Below are positions 12,322 through 61,120 of a DNA stretch of 64,000 nt, one piece after another. The stretch comes from Gemmatimonadaceae bacterium (GTDB taxonomy: Bacteria; Gemmatimonadota; Gemmatimonadetes; Gemmatimonadales; Gemmatimonadaceae). The notes beneath the pieces were generated by a model. It had not been told where the DNA came from, ran no database searches, and worked only from the letters and a program-made list of their open reading frames with translations. Position 1 is the first letter of the stretch. Every line of letters begins with the position of its first letter. A program made the translations under genes and the position numbers. The stretch is taken from positions 373 through 64,372 of the forward strand of contig DASZZO010000053.1 of NCBI GenBank assembly GCA_035544915.1, in the 5' to 3' direction.

Positions 12322-12340
12322 AGCGGAGAGTCTACTGCAG

Positions 12341-12460
12341 TCGAGGGTTTGGAGTCGAGGGTTTGGAGTCGAGGGTTTGGAGTCGAGGGGTTTGGAGTCG
12401 AGGGTTTGGAGTCGAGGGTTTGGAGTCGAGGGTCGAGAGTTGAGGCATGAGAGTTGAAAG
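12341..12460. repeat. Tandem array of six 14-15 bp units TCGAGGGTTTGGAG, followed by a GAGAGTTGAG-type arm
   Basis: Direct reading: units at 12341, 12355, 12369, 12383 (15 nt), 12398 and 12412, then TCGAGGGTCGAGAGTTGAGGCATGAGAGTTGAAAG. Confidence 0.9.
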
Positions 12461-12829: not shown

Positions 12830-13049
12830 GTCGAGAACAGGCGAGGGTTGAGGGTCGAGAGTCTTGAGTTGGGGGTCTGGACCGTTTGGACTACTCCCGG
12901 TCGTCTCCCGGAACCGACGCGTTCGGGAGGGTAGCAAAAACAGAGTTGAGAGTTGAGAGTTGAGAGTCGGGGGAGATCCCGCAACTCGCATCTCTGGACG
13001 CGCGACTCTCGACCCCCAACTCTCAACCCTCGACTCCAACCTCTCGACT
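12828..13049. repeat. Composite GAGAGTTGAG-type inverted-repeat element without ORF cargo
   Basis: G-rich arms at 12828-12875 and 12941-12973, a remnant motif CAACTCGCATCTC at 12982-12994, and a C-rich arm at 13005-13049 (ACTCTCGACCCCCAACTCTCAACCCTCGACTCC...). It fills the whole spacer between the stop at 12829 and the ligD ATG at 13056. Confidence 0.8.
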
Positions 13050-13055
13050 GTTTCA

Positions 13056-14768
13056 ATGCCTCCCCTCGAGACGTACCGGCGCAAGCGGGATTTTTCTGCG
13101 ACGGCCGAACCACGGGGCGCTGCCCTGCGCCCCGCTACGCCTGGATCCCTCCGCTTCGTCATCCAGAAACACGCGGCGTCGCACCTGCACTTCGATCTCC
13201 GGCTGGAACTCGACGGCGTCATGAAGAGCTGGGCCGTGCCGAAGGGGCCGAGCATCGACCCGCAGGTCAAGCGACTCGCCATGCAGGTAGAGGATCACCC
13301 GATCGAGTACAACCGCTTCGAGGGCACCATCCCCGAGGGCGAATATGGCGGCGGTACCGTCATGATCTGGGATCGCGGGACGTATGAGCCGCTCGAGGGT
13401 GGACTCGACGAGCTGCGCGAGGCATTCAAGAAGGGGACCATCAAGTTCCTCCTGCACGGTGAACGGTTGCACGGCTCATGGGCGCTGGTGCGCATGAATC
13501 GGGGCGCCGGCCGCCAGTGGCTCCTCATCAAGCATCGCGACCGCTACGCGCGGACCGGAGGCAACATCGTCGGCCGCGTGCTGACTTCCGTGGCGACCCA
13601 ACGCACCATGAAAAGCATCGCGGGCGAGGAGCGCGCACGGGCTCGCAGCGCCGTGAAGACCAGTGAGCGGCGCGCGCCCACCCGCACGACCCCGACGCGC
13701 GTCATCCCCAGGCTTGAACCCATGCTCGCCCGGCTCGGAACCTCATTGCCCGAGGGCAAAGGCTGGACGTTCGAGCCCAAGTATGACGGTATTCGTGTGC
13801 TCGCCTTTGCGGATGGCGATGCCGTAAGCCTGGTGACCCGGAATCAGCTGGACAAGGCATCACAGTTTCCCGACATCGCCGGCGCGCTCACGGCGCTTTC
13901 CCGGAAAAAGCGTCGCCCGTTCGTGCTCGATGGGGAGATCGTCGCCTACGCCGGACGAGTGCTCGGTCGCTTTCAGGAGCTGCAGGAACGCATTCACGAA
14001 ACCAATTCCGCGAAGATCGCGGGTCACATCCGGAACAGCCCTGCGGCGCTGATCGCCTTCGACCTCCTGATGGAAGGCGTCGTTTCATATGTGAAGGAGC
14101 CGCTGGCAACGCGCCGCGCCACCCTCGAGAAACTCTTCGCCCGCCAGCGTTCGCCTGCTCTGCGCCTCGGCGTCTCGATCGAGGGGGGCGGCGATCGACT
14201 CCTGGAGAAGGCTACGAAGGAAGGCTGGGAAGGCATCATGGCGAAGCGCCTCGACGCGCCGTATCGCACGGGAAAACGGTCGGATGCCTGGCTCAAGCTC
14301 AAGCTGGAGGCGCGGCAGGAGTTCGTCGTAGGCGGCTGGACCGAGCCACGGAGATCGCGCGAGCACATCGGATCCCTTCTCCTCGGCTACTGGAAACGCG
14401 GCAAGCTGATCTATGCCGGGCACACCGGTGCAGGATTCTCGCGCCGCACGCTGGCCGACCTGGCGGCGCGCCTGGCTCCATTGGAACGCAAGACGTCGGC
14501 CTTCGAGACCGAGCCGCGCCCCAACGCCCCTGCGCATTGGACGAGACCCGAGGTCGTGGTCGAGATCAAGTTCAATGAATGGACCGCCGGTGGCCGCCTC
14601 CGGCGGCCGGTCTTCCTGGGTGTGCGCGATGACAAGGACGCGCGCACGGTTGTTCGCGAAGGCCCCGCGAGGCAGCGGCAACAGCGCCGCGTGCGGCCAG
14701 CTGCGACCGCCCGCCGCACGGTGCAAGCCACCGCGACCAGCCGCGCGACGGCGAAAGGCGCGGCATGA
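13056..14768 (+). CDS. ligD: DNA ligase D, 3'-phosphoesterase + ATP-dependent ligase domains
   Basis: The PE domain is LRFVIQKHAASHLHFDLRLE..SWAVPKGPS..HPIEY..GEYGGG. The ligase domain carries the adenylation motif EPKYDGIRV. ATG 13056; upstream ORF residues are repeat DNA. Confidence 0.9.
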   Translation: MPPLETYRRKRDFSATAEPRGAALRPATPGSLRFVIQKHAASHLHFDLRLELDGVMKSWAVPKGPSIDPQVKRLAMQVEDHPIEYNRFEGTIPEGEYGGGTVMIWDRGTYEPLEGGLDELREAFKKGTIKFLLHGERLHGSWALVRMNRGAGRQWLLIKHRDRYARTGGNIVGRVLTSVATQRTMKSIAGEERARARSAVKTSERRAPTRTTPTRVIPRLEPMLARLGTSLPEGKGWTFEPKYDGIRVLAFADGDAVSLVTRNQLDKASQFPDIAGALTALSRKKRRPFVLDGEIVAYAGRVLGRFQELQERIHETNSAKIAGHIRNSPAALIAFDLLMEGVVSYVKEPLATRRATLEKLFARQRSPALRLGVSIEGGGDRLLEKATKEGWEGIMAKRLDAPYRTGKRSDAWLKLKLEARQEFVVGGWTEPRRSREHIGSLLLGYWKRGKLIYAGHTGAGFSRRTLADLAARLAPLERKTSAFETEPRPNAPAHWTRPEVVVEIKFNEWTAGGRLRRPVFLGVRDDKDARTVVREGPARQRQQRRVRPAATARRTVQATATSRATAKGAA

Positions 14769-25159: not shown

Positions 25160-25588
25160 TTACGGGCAGTCGAGAGTTGAGAGTCGAGAGTTGAGAGTTC
25201 TGGAGACGGGAGACTTGAGTTTTGAGATGTGAGTTGGGCGCCTTGTGCTTCGCATCAGCGCCATGAGCATCCGCTGGATCTCGTCGAGGTTCGCGGTGAC
25301 GCGGTGGAGGTCGGACGAAGGAATGAATCCGAGGTCGCCGGCAATGAGCAAATGACTCTCGAGCTCCCGTGATGAGGCGATCGCGATCTGGTACAGACGG
25401 GCCTGGTCCCCGGAGGTCTTGCGCCCCGAACTCTCCGCGATGTTTGCGGGAATCGAAACTGCCGCCCTTTGAATCTGAGATGAAAGGCCCTGAAGCTCGG
25501 CGGCCGGGAACGTCCTGGTGAGCCGGTATGCAACCACAGCGAGCGCACGCGCTCGCTGCCAGACAATCAACTCCTTGAAGTCAGCCAC
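25160..25588 (-). CDS. Four-helix-bundle protein (23S rRNA intervening-sequence protein / Avd family)
   Basis: ADFKELIVWQRARALAVVAYRLTRTFP..LSSQIQRAAVSIPANIAES.G.....ARLYQIAIAS.RELESHLLIAGDLGFI is the canonical family pattern. GTG 25588 is preferred, with TTG 25618 as the alternative. The last ~12 codons are encoded by the repeat arm. Confidence 0.85.
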   Translation of the reverse strand: MADFKELIVWQRARALAVVAYRLTRTFPAAELQGLSSQIQRAAVSIPANIAESSGRKTSGDQARLYQIAIASSRELESHLLIAGDLGFIPSSDLHRVTANLDEIQRMLMALMRSTRRPTHISKLKSPVSRTLNSRLSTLDCP

Positions 25589-28168: not shown

Positions 28169-28366
28169 CCGTCGAGAGTTTGGAGGCGAGAGTTGGGAGT
28201 TGGGGGATGAGAGTCGAGAGTTGAGAGTTGAGAGTTCCAACTCGCAGTCCAAAGTCCCCGGAGTCCGGTCCGGCGTCGAGAGGCCTCGCGATCAGCAACA
28301 CCTGAACTCTCAACCCTCGACTCTCGACCCCCAAACTCTCAACGCCCGACCCTCAACTCTCGACGG
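28169..28366. repeat. Cargo-less GAGAGTTGAG-type inverted-repeat element (two ~66-nt arms, ~64-nt loop)
   Basis: The termini CCGTCGAGAGTT (28169-28180) and AACTCTCGACGG (28355-28366) are perfect complements, and the arms are about 85% complementary by eye. The loop begins with the remnant CAACTCGCA (28238-28246). Confidence 0.85.
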
Positions 28367-31470: not shown

Positions 31471-31510
31471 ACTCGTCTTCCGTCGTCTTCTGTCGTCTTC
31501 TGTCGTCTTC
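31471..31510. repeat. Four tandem 10-bp units (Y)GTCGTCTTC
   Basis: Direct reading: actcgtcttc cgtcgtcttc tgtcgtcttc tgtcgtcttc. The array ends 25 nt upstream of the tRNA. Confidence 0.9.
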
Positions 31511-31535
31511 CGAATTCCCGGACTCATCAAGAAGG

Positions 31536-31609
31536 GCGCGAGTAGCTCAGCTGGATAGAGCGTCGGCCTCCGGAGCCGAAGGTCGTGGGTTCGAATCCCG
31601 CCTCGCGCA
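31536..31609 (+). tRNA. tRNA-Arg (anticodon CCG)
   Basis: Manual cloverleaf: acceptor GCGCGAG/CTCGCGC, D arm GCTC-AGCTGGATA-GAGC, anticodon arm TCGGC-CTCCGGA-GCCGA, T arm GTGGG-TTCGAAT-CCCGC, discriminator A. CCA is not encoded. Confidence 0.9.
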
Positions 31610-56909: not shown

Positions 56910-56962
56910 ACGCGCGGCTGACGCGCGCGGCTGACGCGCGCGGCTGAGCGCGCGCGGCTGAC
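56910..56962. repeat. Four tandem copies of GCGCGGCTGA(C/G) (period 13-14 bp)
   Basis: Direct reading in the divergent PBP1A/tyrS spacer: ..cgcgcggctgac gcgcgcggctgac gcgcgcggctgag cgcgcgcggctgac.. Confidence 0.9.
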
Positions 56963-56992
56963 AGCGCGCCTCTCATCCGGTAGCTTTGCCGA

Positions 56993-58288
56993 ATGCCCAC
57001 CGCGAGTACCTCGTTTCTCGACGAGCTGAGTTGGCGGGGACTGCTCTACCAGCAGACCGACGGACTGGCGGCGCACCTCGCCAAGGCGCCGGTTGTGGCG
57101 TACTGCGGGTTCGATCCGACCGCGCCAAGCCTGCACATCGGGAACCTCGTTCCGGCGATGCTCCTCGTGCACGCGGCGCGCGCCGGCCACCGCGCCATCG
57201 CGCTCGTGGGAGGCGGCACGGCCATGATCGGCGATCCGTCCGGAAAGTCCGAGGAGCGCCCGCTGTCCAGCACCGGGACAATCGACGCGAACGCTGCGCG
57301 CATCCATGCGCAGCTCGAGCGTCTTTTCAGGTCGGCAGGGACGACGGGAGTCGCGATGGTCAACAACGCCGACTGGCTGCGCGAAATGCGGATGATCGAT
57401 TTCATGCGCGACGTCGGGAAACACTTTCCGATCAACTACATGCTGGCGAAGGATTCCGTGCAATCGCGGCTCGAGACGGGAATCTCCTATACGGAGTTCT
57501 CCTACATGCTGCTGCAGGCGTTCGACTTCCTGCAGCTGTACCGGAGCGAAGGCGTCACGCTGCAAGTGGGCGGCACGGACCAGTGGGGGAACATCACGGC
57601 GGGAATGGAGCTTGTGCGGCGCGCGGGGGGCGGCGAGGCGCACGTACTGACTGCACCGCTCGTCACCACGTCGAGCGGCAAGAAGTTCGGCAAGTCCGAA
57701 TCGAATGCCGTGTGGCTCGACCCGGAACTGACCTCGCCGTACCAGTTCTATCAGTTCTGGGTGAACACCGAGGACGCCGACGTGGGGCGATACCTGCGGA
57801 TGTTCACCTTCCGGTCGCAGGCGGAGATCGCGGGAATCGAGGCGGCGCACGCGGCGGCGCCGCACGAACGCCGGGCGCAACGGGAGCTTGCCCGCGACGT
57901 GACCAGCATGCTGCACGGCGTGGATGCGGCGCGCGTTGCCCTGGAGGTCTCGCGCGTGATCTTCGAGAAGAAGGCCAACCCTGTCGCCATCGACGATTAC
58001 ATCTACGAGACGCTGGCGGCAGAGATCCCGGGCGCGGAATACCCGGATGCTACCGAACTGAACGTGCTCGACCTGCTGGAGGACGCGTTCTCACTGTCGC
58101 GGAGCGCGGGACGCAAGCTCGTGCAGCAAGGCGGCATCACGGTGAACGGGCGCAAGCTCACCGGCGACGAGCTGACCGTGCCGCTGGAAAACGCGGTGCG
58201 AGGCCGGTGGTTTCTCGTCCGCAAGGGTGGCCGGGATATTGCACTCGCCGAAATCGGCGGACGACGAGCCACCGCTCCACGATTATGA
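56993..58288 (+). CDS. tyrS: Tyrosine--tRNA ligase
   Basis: YCGFDPTAPSLHIGNL (HIGH), GGTDQWGNI, KFGKSE (KMSKS variant) and a C-terminal S4-like domain. Confidence 0.95.
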   Translation: MPTASTSFLDELSWRGLLYQQTDGLAAHLAKAPVVAYCGFDPTAPSLHIGNLVPAMLLVHAARAGHRAIALVGGGTAMIGDPSGKSEERPLSSTGTIDANAARIHAQLERLFRSAGTTGVAMVNNADWLREMRMIDFMRDVGKHFPINYMLAKDSVQSRLETGISYTEFSYMLLQAFDFLQLYRSEGVTLQVGGTDQWGNITAGMELVRRAGGGEAHVLTAPLVTTSSGKKFGKSESNAVWLDPELTSPYQFYQFWVNTEDADVGRYLRMFTFRSQAEIAGIEAAHAAAPHERRAQRELARDVTSMLHGVDAARVALEVSRVIFEKKANPVAIDDYIYETLAAEIPGAEYPDATELNVLDLLEDAFSLSRSAGRKLVQQGGITVNGRKLTGDELTVPLENAVRGRWFLVRKGGRDIALAEIGGRRATAPRL

Positions 58289-58634
58289 ACGCGGGTCGTT
58301 GCAGCCCGTGACAATATCGATGTGACAGGAGTGCGGAGCCGGGAGTATCAAGTAGGCGGCAAGCGGGCCGGCGACGTGCGAATCGCGGACCGCCGGATTC
58401 GTTCAGAGCTGTTTGAAAATCCAGCGGTGCACCGGCGATCGCTTTCGCGAGCAGGCGAACGCTCGATGATGCAGTGGTGAGCGACTTCGAGGGCGCGCGA
58501 AACCGCAACCACGCAGCGATGAACGGGCTGGGGAGTGGCCGAAAGCTCTTCAACGCAACGAGGAACGGCCGCCAGGTGCGCAAACGTTCCTCGATGCAGC
58601 GGTGAACGGCCTCAAGGGCACGTGCAATGGCTAT

Positions 58635-59054
58635 CGAGGCACGTGCAGTCGCTACCGAGGCACATGAAGTGGGCGGCGAGGCATGCGAAGTGCGCGGGAA
58701 GGCACGAGCAATGAACGCCGAGGCACGCGAAACGGACGGTCAGGTTCGGGCAACGAACGGCGAGGCCCACCAACCAGACACCGCGGTCCGCGAAGCGGCC
58801 ACGAAGGCCCGCGAAGTGGCCACGAAGGCTCGCGAAGCAAGGGCCAAGGCACGCGAAACGAACGGCCAGGCGCGTGCACCGGGTAGCGAGGCTCTCTTAA
58901 CGAGTACCGAGGCTGGCGAAGTCGGCACGACGGCTCACGCAATGAGCACCGAGGCTCACGGAATGAGCACCGAGACAACAGCAACGCGCCCCGAGGCACC
59001 CGAAACGAACACCGAGGCAACAGCAACGCGCACGAGGCACCCGGAACGGTCCTG
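58635..59054. repeat. 20 x 21-bp strictly phased degenerate tandem repeat (consensus about CGAGGCNCGCGAANNGNNCAC)
   Basis: Hand-parsed units start at 58635 + 21n for n = 0..19 with no indel. CGAGGC or a one-mismatch variant heads most units. The array ends exactly at the aminotransferase stop (59055). Confidence 0.85.
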
Positions 59055-60206
59055 TCACTGCAAGAGCCCCAGGGCCACGTTGAACTCTTCGATCGTATTG
59101 TAGAAGTGCGGTGCCAGCCGGATGCACCCTTCGCGCACCGAGTGTGACACGCGCGCCGTTCTGAGCCGTTCGCTTGCCGCTGCGACGTTCCGTGTGCGAA
59201 ATGCAAACACCCCCGCGCGCCGGCCCGGTTCTCTCGGCGTCACAAGCGTCACCGCCGGTGTCGCATCCGCGAACGCGACCGCTCGATCGCCCAGCGCACG
59301 CACGTGCGCCGCGACCGCGCTGGTACCGAGTTCCAGGAACAGTCCCAGCGATTCCGACAAGCCGCGGAAGTTCACAAAGTCCAGGGTTACGACTTCGAAT
59401 CGCCGCGCATCGTCGTGCAGCGTTGGATCATATTCCAGGAATCGGCTGAAGTCGTCGCTTGCCGGCTGTGCCATCCATCCGACTTCCGCGGGCTCGAGCT
59501 TCGCCACCAGCTCATCGCGGACATATGCAAACCCCGTGCCCCATGGCGAGCAGAGCCACTTCTGCGCGCCGCACGACAGGATGTCGACGTTCGCCGCGAT
59601 GACGTCGAGCGCGAGTGGGCCGACACCCTGGATGGCGTCGACGAAGAACCAGATGCCGCGGGCGCGGCACGCGGCACCAATGGCCGCCAGATCGAACGCA
59701 TGTCCGCTCCAGTAGCTCACCCAGGACAGCGCAACGAGCTTCACGCGCGGATCGCCCTCGATGGCGCGCATGAGCGCCTCCTCGTCGGGCAGGTCGCCCG
59801 CGAGCGGGAGGAGCCGGAACTCGGCGCCGCGCGCGCGCGCGGCAGCCATCCAGGGATAGACGTTCGCGGGAAACTCGCCGTGCGTGGAGAGAATCACGTC
59901 GCCGGCGCCGAACGGAAGCGCGCGCGCGGCCAGGTTCACGCCGTGCGTGGTGTTCGTCATGAGCGCGATGCTCCTCGTGGCGGCGCCAATCAGTTGCGCA
60001 GCGCGCTCGCGGGCGCAGGCGAGCACGGGGAAAAAGTCTTCTCGCCGCAACCTGAACGGCTCCGCCCGCTTCGCGCCCAGCGTGGCGATCGCGGCGCGCG
60101 TGCACGCCGGGATGGGACCGGTGGACGCATGATCGAGATAGATGGACTCGCCGCGCTCCGCCCACGGAAACTCCCGCGCCCTGATCGCGCGAACGTCGTA
60201 ACTCAT
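59055..60206 (-). CDS. Class V aminotransferase-fold PLP enzyme (cysteine desulfurase / SufS-CsdA-like)
   Basis: ATG 60206 gives MSYDVRAIRAREFPW..IYLDHASTGP. 383 aa with ..SCGAQKWL.. as the PLP-lysine context. The start overlaps the upstream stop (ATGA). Confidence 0.8.
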   Translation of the reverse strand: MSYDVRAIRAREFPWAERGESIYLDHASTGPIPACTRAAIATLGAKRAEPFRLRREDFFPVLACARERAAQLIGAATRSIALMTNTTHGVNLAARALPFGAGDVILSTHGEFPANVYPWMAAARARGAEFRLLPLAGDLPDEEALMRAIEGDPRVKLVALSWVSYWSGHAFDLAAIGAACRARGIWFFVDAIQGVGPLALDVIAANVDILSCGAQKWLCSPWGTGFAYVRDELVAKLEPAEVGWMAQPASDDFSRFLEYDPTLHDDARRFEVVTLDFVNFRGLSESLGLFLELGTSAVAAHVRALGDRAVAFADATPAVTLVTPREPGRRAGVFAFRTRNVAAASERLRTARVSHSVREGCIRLAPHFYNTIEEFNVALGLLQ

Positions 60207-61120
60207 GGTTCCATCAATGCCGCCGGCGTGCCGGCCGGCTGGTGTTTCCAGCGGCGGTGCTGCCAGAAGTACTGTCCGGGATAGCGCCGCACCATGCGCT
60301 CCAGCGCTTCCGAGACGCGCGCGGTGATCGCGTCCGTATCGCGCTCGCGATCGTCCGAGCGCGACAGCGCAATTTCCTCGGCAACCCATTCATAGCGGCC
60401 GTCGCCAAGCCGCACCGCCTGACCATAGACGATGGGCGCGTCGAAGCGCAGGGCGAACACCGCAGCGCCGCGCGGCGTCTTGGCTGGCCGCCCGAAGAAC
60501 GGAACGAATGTCGAGGCGAGCCCGACGGTGGCCTGGTCCAACAGGATCCCGACTGCATGACCATCGCGCAGCACCCGGGGCACGCGCCGCACCGCGTCCT
60601 GGTCGTGCATGATATGCATGCCGAGGTGCTCGCGCGTGCGCCGGAAGAAGGCATCCGAGAGCGGATTCGCCATTCCCCGTGCGATCGCGTGGAGCGGCAC
60701 TCCGCGTGCTGCGATGTACGCACCGGAAAGTTCCCAGTTCCCGAGGTGGCCGGAGACGATGATCAGTCCTCGTCCGCGCGCGTGCGCGCGCTCGACGATG
60801 TCCCATCCGGGTGATGGACCGAATGCGTCGAGTACGGCGCTCGGACCACCTCGAGACCACAGGATCGCTTCGAGCGCCACCCGGCCGAGGTTTGTATACG
60901 ATTCGCGCGCAATGCGGCCGATGTCCTCCGGCCCCAGCTCCGGAAATGCGGCAGCGATCTGGCGCCGCACCACGCCGCGCCGGATTCCCAGCGGCGAGTA
61001 CGCGAGACGCGCGATGGCGCCGGCCACCCGTCCGGCCGCACGCGGGCCGAGCGGGGCGAGCGCGTCCGTGAAGCCGCGGAGAGCGGCATACTCGAGGCGG
61101 TGCGCGATGGTGGCAGCCAC
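60203..61120 (-). CDS. Lipid A biosynthesis (Kdo)2-lipid IVA acyltransferase family protein (LpxL/HtrB-like)
   Basis: IIVSGHLGNWELSG carries the HX4D/E acyltransferase motif context. Length and N-terminal pattern (LEYAALR..L..LP) are typical. GTG start. Confidence 0.8.
   Translation of the reverse strand: MAATIAHRLEYAALRGFTDALAPLGPRAAGRVAGAIARLAYSPLGIRRGVVRRQIAAAFPELGPEDIGRIARESYTNLGRVALEAILWSRGGPSAVLDAFGPSPGWDIVERAHARGRGLIIVSGHLGNWELSGAYIAARGVPLHAIARGMANPLSDAFFRRTREHLGMHIMHDQDAVRRVPRVLRDGHAVGILLDQATVGLASTFVPFFGRPAKTPRGAAVFALRFDAPIVYGQAVRLGDGRYEWVAEEIALSRSDDRERDTDAITARVSEALERMVRRYPGQYFWQHRRWKHQPAGTPAALMEP

Follow-up and report, generated by a model that had tools for sequence, protein, structure and literature searches.

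A 21-bp tandem array between the convergent tyrS and aminotransferase genes of a Gemmatimonadaceae lineage: non-coding DNA and probably a minisatellite

The spacer in which the tyrS and aminotransferase genes of an uncultured Gemmatimonadaceae lineage meet 3' to 3' contains a tandem array of 21-bp units that is probably (at roughly 0.65) a non-coding, lineage-restricted minisatellite of the VNTR type. Such an array would have expanded where it lies as blocks of 21, 42 and 126 bp were repeatedly copied in tandem and in register, by slipped-strand mispairing or unequal recombination. Divergence by point mutation would have followed at a roughly neutral rate, with units still being gained and lost, and the spacer between two convergent genes would tolerate insertions of this kind. 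We infer both the slippage or recombination mechanism and the near-neutrality of the array, which is without a demonstrated sequence-specific function.

The array and its locus

The array lies in a window of 64 kb (the whole stretch of DNA analysed) from a Gemmatimonadaceae MAG. The surrounding genes encode PBP1A, TyrS, a class-V aminotransferase, a lipid A acyltransferase and a glycosyltransferase, and tyrS (+) and the aminotransferase gene (-) converge on a 766-bp spacer. The features of the locus, in window positions, are these:

56993..58288, + strand: tyrS (tyrosine--tRNA ligase), the upstream convergent neighbour of the array
58289..58445, no strand: spacer without repeats; about 58283-58378 is alignable with the L202 spacer (~75% identity)
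58446..58634, no strand: degenerate, older upstream extension of the core array, with ~9 units, a 42-nt super-period and small indels
58635..59054, no strand: core array, 19 exact-register 21-bp units and a 20th shifted by a 1-nt deletion
58627..59103, + strand: 158-aa ORF across the core array, judged spurious
59055..60209, - strand: class-V aminotransferase, cysteine desulfurase-like gene (Pfam Aminotran_5), its stop codon abutting the last unit

The array as a whole extends over ~610 bp (approximately 58446 to 59054) and comprises ~29 units, those of the core having the consensus CGAGGCaCgcGaAacGaaCaC. Within 58635-59054, lags 21, 42 and 63 give identities of 0.627, 0.606 and 0.549; in 200 shuffles the highest value at any lag from 1 to 89 was 0.353 on average and 0.398 at most. 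Tandem Repeats Finder (TRF) likewise reported overlapping 21- and 42-bp arrays, and the 21-nt periodicity of the original prediction is thus upheld (0.63 at lag 21 against at most 0.40 in shuffles). The upstream extension has a lag-42 identity of 0.48. A lag-21 signal near the strength of the core was found nowhere else in the 64-kb window, in which the motif array is likewise unique. A 7-nt sub-periodicity inside the 21-mer was not significant (P = 0.09 for lag 7; 0.68 when corrected over lags).

The boundaries and the phase had been described as 20 units in register without an indel, starting at 58635 and ending at the aminotransferase stop. The downstream boundary was placed correctly, the stop codon (59055-57) abutting the last unit. 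The register is exact for n = 0-18, but the 20th unit (59034) lacks its first base. The start lies further upstream than described, since nine additional degenerate units reach to about 58446 with at least one 1-nt indel. The divergence of roughly half of the unit positions was also judged rightly, mean pairwise identity between units being about 12/21 (~57%). Columns G4 and A13 are invariant (n = 19 units), and A3, G5, C6 and G11 are nearly so; the pattern AGGC...G.A is common to all units of the related array in lineage L214 and to most units of the upstream extension. Only 6.9% of the + strand of the array is T. Because an independently assembled Logan contig (L001) is base-for-base identical across the region, the array is not an assembly artefact. 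Neither is it a CRISPR array, the 21-mers being contiguous and without spacers, and all parts of the unit being common to the copies.

Relatives and sequence turnover

Close relatives were reached through homologues of TyrS and of the aminotransferase and the contigs that carry them. With W denoting the lineage of the window, the TyrS tree reads ((((W,L202),L204),L205),L213),(L211,(L209,L206)), and the tyrS-aminotransferase junction takes the following forms:

L214 (aminotransferase 92% identical to W): homologous array directly after the stop codon, the contig ending within the array
L202/L203 (TyrS 88% and aminotransferase 91% identical to W): no array
L204, L205: 42-bp arrays of about 9 and 7 units
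P0122 contig: 65-bp gap
L213: 7-bp gap
L211: 2-bp gap
L206/L209: tyrS and the aminotransferase gene separated by a Ser/Thr kinase gene

The array is thus present in one close relative, L214, and absent from others, among them the equally close L202 and the more distant lineages with gaps of 2-7 bp; its units have been duplicated recently, and its sequence has turned over. An array homologous to that of W was absent from 80 tyrS loci of GTDB species representatives; at one of these loci, L004, a 21-nt signal downstream of tyrS was traced to a Gly-rich, low-complexity coding region and set aside.

Over 13 kb W and L202 are collinear with 85-87% nucleotide identity, and apart from the spacer with the array (800 bp in W vs 190 bp in L202) no large break interrupts the match; the gap between the two L202 genes is 168 bp and holds no array. 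The spacer segment that is ~75% identical between the two lineages directly abuts the aminotransferase stop codon in L202. Neither the L202 spacer nor the left flank of the W array yielded a remnant or a seed unit that scored above background, so a specific local seed cannot be claimed as the origin of the array. The L202 lineage either lost the array or never gained it.

The end of tyrS also differs between these two lineages. The C-terminal tail in W (...GGRRATAPRL) is unlike that of L202 (58270-58378 vs L202 7262-7443): ~80 bp 3' of the L202 tyrS stop codon are missing in W, so that the reading frame is fused to spacer sequence, and over the next ~100 nt, which are unique spacer, the two lineages share about 75% identity. 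Nothing convincing emerged from a search of this unique segment, common to W and L202, for conserved structure.

The L214 array documents both duplication and turnover. Its units comprise three identical copies of CAAGGCACACGCAATGAGCAC, at the point where the contig ends, together with variants, and they score 14-27 bits against the position weight matrix (PWM). W, L202 and L214 are about equidistant (identity at 4-fold sites 0.66-0.71). The W and L214 arrays are 66% identical in positional register and 59-65% identical in shifted registers, and the best matches between W and L214 units (15-18/21) equal the best matches within W (mean 16.5). A positional register no better than the shifted ones, together with unit matches of equal quality, indicates that the relation between the two arrays is one of turnover and not of unit-by-unit orthology. 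Phase-breaking indels in homologues, which had been named as the sign of neutral decay, are not seen in L214, where the 21-bp phase is kept over the 6 visible units; the stronger observation is nevertheless that related lineages either have or lack the array and that its sequence has turned over completely among them.

Beyond these lineages, a metagenome scan for four phased AGGY-N4-G-N-A units gave at least 120 matches; rescored with the PWM, those listed were 21-nt repeats of other kinds and included no relative. BLASTN of the array against plasmids and phages gave no match, and a literature search turned up nothing specific to this repeat.

Two lineages carry other arrays at the same junction. 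That of L204 (4040-4440) is a 42-bp tandem array of about 9 units with the core GGTCAnCCTCnGTGTCC, and that of L205 (4050-4350) a 42-bp tandem array of about 7 units with the core GTTGGCAATGTCATTTGTCCAGGC. The W, L204 and L205 arrays each contain a 126-bp higher-order duplication. Similarity among the three was not significant, either by local alignment against shuffles or by cyclic comparison of consensus sequences, and a candidate common core (CAC-N-GAGGC / AGCCTC-N-GTG) did not survive testing. In the L204 and L205 arrays gene callers made minus-strand repeat ORFs of 259 aa and 108 aa, neither with a Pfam match; the 3-periodic variability expected of coding sequence is absent from both arrays, and only 14 distinct codons lie behind the GC3-like pattern of the L205 ORF. 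In a sister clade the junction contains a gene for a Ser/Thr protein kinase of 631 aa (L206 5322-7217; L209 5263-7158), an insertion which implies that the junction is a recurrent insertion site.

Minisatellites are counted among the "small variable segments" of PMC2884548. The array shares with bacterial minisatellites and VNTRs, such as the MIRU-VNTR of Mycobacterium, a head-to-tail intergenic arrangement of units of tens of bp (here 21 bp and about 29 units, within the 10-100 bp that defines the class), presence or absence and unit turnover among related genomes (L214, L202 and gaps of 2-65 bp elsewhere), and ongoing in-register duplication, seen in the recent identical units of L214, in the greater likeness of neighbouring units (p = 0.0006) and in blocks of 42 and 126 bp. 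It also resembles them in having no coding or RNA-structure signal. It differs in being unusually long (about 29 units) and diverged (about 57% identity) yet in phase, and in that two other lineages hold unrelated 42-bp arrays at its junction. Six tandem-repeat loci in the 64-kb window, and others in the spacers of relatives, suggest that the intergenic DNA of this group is generally tandem-repeat-prone.

Heptamer-based tandem arrays (GAGRGTT / TCGAGRG) occupy 12339-12454, 13006-13063, 25168-25198, 28174-28236 and 28305-28357 of the window, one example being a 14-bp unit, AGTCGAGGGTTTGG, repeated 6.7 times. Such arrays lie 9-17 nt upstream of four gene starts:

12321, - strand: arylamine N-acetyltransferase gene
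13056, + strand: LigD gene
25159, - strand: ABC ATPase gene
28161, - strand: MacB/FtsX-type permease gene

Their sense-strand leader consists of (A/G)ACTCTC / AACCCTC repeats at the Shine-Dalgarno position, and the arrays at 28174-28236 and 28305-28357 form an inverted pair, separated by a spacer of ~70 bp, between two ABC genes of the same orientation. The heptamer arrays may constitute a family of leader or regulatory elements. Spacers flanking tyrS are repeat-prone in several lineages: the divergent PBP1A/tyrS spacer holds a 13-bp repeat (CGCGCGGCTGACG, x4.4; 56911-56969) in the window and GGTGACG-based 7/26-bp repeats in L209 (3881-3973), and a 14-bp repeat (x4.9) lies one spacer beyond PBP1A/tyrS in L202 (3722-3788). 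A 10-bp tandem repeat, TCGTCTTCCG, is present four times at 31473-31512 and ends 24 nt upstream of tRNA-Arg(CCG) (31536-31609).

Phase, core motif and cis-acting alternatives

From the preserved phase of so diverged a repeat, the original prediction had argued for selection on periodicity. The analysis does not support that argument, since duplication itself places each new unit in phase. Units resemble their neighbours (13.6 of 21 positions) more than they resemble distant units (about 11.8; permutation p = 0.0006), and a few pairs match at 19/21, among them units 16/18 and 4/10, with pairs 42 and 126 bp apart, which indicates that new units are in phase from their origin. The three identical units of L214 point in the same direction, as do the indels of the older upstream extension and the indel count of the core. 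The unit tree gives about 4.15 substitutions per site, or ~87 events, and the alignable unique spacer of W and L202 has 26 mismatches per indel. Together these figures predict about 3 indels in the core, where 1 is seen (Poisson P about 0.16).

Conservation of individual columns was compared with an equal-rate neutral simulation on the unit tree. The variance in conservation among columns exceeded the neutral simulation at P = 0.036, two or more invariant columns arose at P = 0.063, and six or more columns with at most two mismatches at P = 0.16. Phase retention and the "conserved core" thus go only marginally beyond neutral expectation, a result that leaves room for weak constraint on the AGGC...G.A core.

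The array might instead act in cis, either as a DNA scaffold, in which a putative protein-binding motif, AGGC-N4-G-N-A, recurs at two-turn intervals on a single face of the helix, or as a 3'-UTR RNA that titrates an RNA-binding protein, its phasing being kept while the sequence co-evolves with the partner. We consider this unlikely, though it accommodates several observations. The invariant G4 and A13 and the nearly invariant A3, G5, C6 and G11 (19 units) are kept in the L214 units, the rate heterogeneity among columns is marginally significant, and the 420-bp core has suffered only one indel. In addition, periodicities of 21, 42 and 126 bp recur at one junction in W, L204 and L205. Against it, the collinear sister lineage L202 lacks the array, no candidate partner gene is found among its neighbours, the motif array is single in the window, and the W, L204 and L205 arrays are mutually dissimilar. 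Promoter and terminator signals are lacking, as are hairpins with GGA in the loop, an Rfam match and covariation, and unit identity, averaging ~57%, is far below that of known iterons.

Iterons and partition centromeres consist of short direct repeats, of 22 bp in the R6K iterons, 20 bp in pSK41 parC and 43 bp in F sopC. Like plasmid iterons and the type Ib/II partition centromeres, the array is built of contiguous direct repeats of ~20 bp with a motif on one face of the helix. Nonetheless, the remaining evidence does not support the iteron- or centromere-like reading originally offered. The array is chromosomal, in conserved synteny between housekeeping genes and with no initiator (rep) or partition (par) genes adjacent. 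Its copies number about 29, and with about 57% identity and a core of marginal significance they are far more divergent than the highly similar, motif-bearing units of such elements. Nothing similar occurs in plasmids or phages, and the array is missing from the collinear sister lineage.

Periods of 21, 42 and 42 bp at a single junction in three lineages are unexpected for fully independent neutral events, and this recurrence, with the 126-bp duplications, keeps a functional reading alive as a minority view. Common descent with sequence turnover would be the simplest account of the period multiples, and would imply long persistence. That a Gemmatimonadaceae clade has long kept a phased array at this junction, with 21, 42 and 126 bp corresponding to 2, 4 and 12 helical turns while the sequence turns over, is however quite improbable. 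If it were true, the long-kept phasing and position would imply a cis function dependent on structure or spacing rather than neutral slippage, for example a scaffold for nucleoid or roadblock proteins between the convergent transcription units, or a co-evolving binding array.

Tests for coding and RNA structure

The array is non-coding, and the coding reading is rejected by every test applied. Translation of the 158-aa ORF as a heptad-repeat, coiled-coil-like protein, (EA+EVxx)n, is accordingly very improbable. As in heptad-repeat proteins generally, the 21-nt period equals 7 codons and is divisible by 3, the frame is open over the entire core array, and A and V sit at a/d-like heptad positions; in L214 a gene caller likewise predicted a partial ORF in this frame. 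A Shine-Dalgarno sequence had been said to be lacking, which is not strictly true, AAGGG lying 8 nt upstream of the ATG. Unlike heptad-repeat proteins, however, the array fails all codon-level tests and gives only spurious, low-complexity matches.

The doubt already cast on coding by the original prediction is borne out at each of these levels. GC hardly differs between codon positions in the array (0.63-0.70 over all six frames), whereas five neighbouring genes have values of about 0.65-0.80, 0.47-0.55 and 0.79-0.84 at the three positions; GC3 of the ORF is 0.66 vs 0.79-0.84 in these real genes. Third-position variability is absent in every frame of the array. The invariant nucleotides G4 and A13 both fall at third-codon positions of the ORF, and in one of these columns A is fixed as the third base of codons whose first two bases vary, so that the residue changes among E, A, Q, L and G. 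A fixed third base under varying residues indicates conservation at the level of the nucleotide and not of the protein. Several frames of the array, besides that of the ORF, are open only because of the low T content of the + strand, and the 49-bp overlap with the convergent aminotransferase gene, as first described, was confirmed. The search for protein homologues that had been proposed yielded no protein family match and no real homologue. The ORF had no Pfam match, HMMER against 1.84 billion representative proteins gave only four unrelated heptad-repeat proteins, and a word-indexed search of 5.8 billion clusters gave no match. No gene was called over the array in the identical contig L001, and L202 is without the ORF.

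The array has no conserved RNA structure. The idea that it is a structured non-coding RNA, with a hairpin in each unit or a long-range fold, is as poorly favoured as the coiled-coil protein. Hairpins of 5 bp can form in a few units, among them GCUCA-N5-UGAGC in units 14 and 15, but the latter is broken in the L214 counterpart (TGAGC -> TGTGC). Folding energies do not differ from those of shuffles (z = 0.15 and 0.03 on the two strands). When the units are stacked as an alignment, the level of pairing between their columns matches the expectation from composition on every anti-diagonal, with no covariation or pairing excess in any pair of columns. The array matched no Rfam family, even at E <= 10. 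A sigma-70-like promoter was not found at the array, and terminator-like sites were in no excess over shuffle expectation. The protein-sponge sRNAs CsrB and RsmZ carry several A(N)GGA motifs in hairpin loops and have their own promoter and terminator. The array is like them an intergenic stretch of several hundred nt with ~20 copies of a short purine-rich, AGG-containing motif, but that motif is AGGC, not A(N)GGA, and is not displayed in hairpin loops. Moreover, in contrast to these sRNAs, the array has neither Rfam match nor promoter nor terminator, and is not conserved.

The outcome is mostly a clean negative: a phase-perfect repeat with an ORF can be explained without coding and without selection on periodicity. 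In genomes of high GC content, repeats poor in T give rise to long spurious ORFs, such as those called in the L204, L205 and L214 arrays, and arrays of this kind break short-read assemblies, as where the L214 contig stops inside its array. The locus might also be used as a VNTR marker to tell apart strains of this soil Gemmatimonadaceae lineage.
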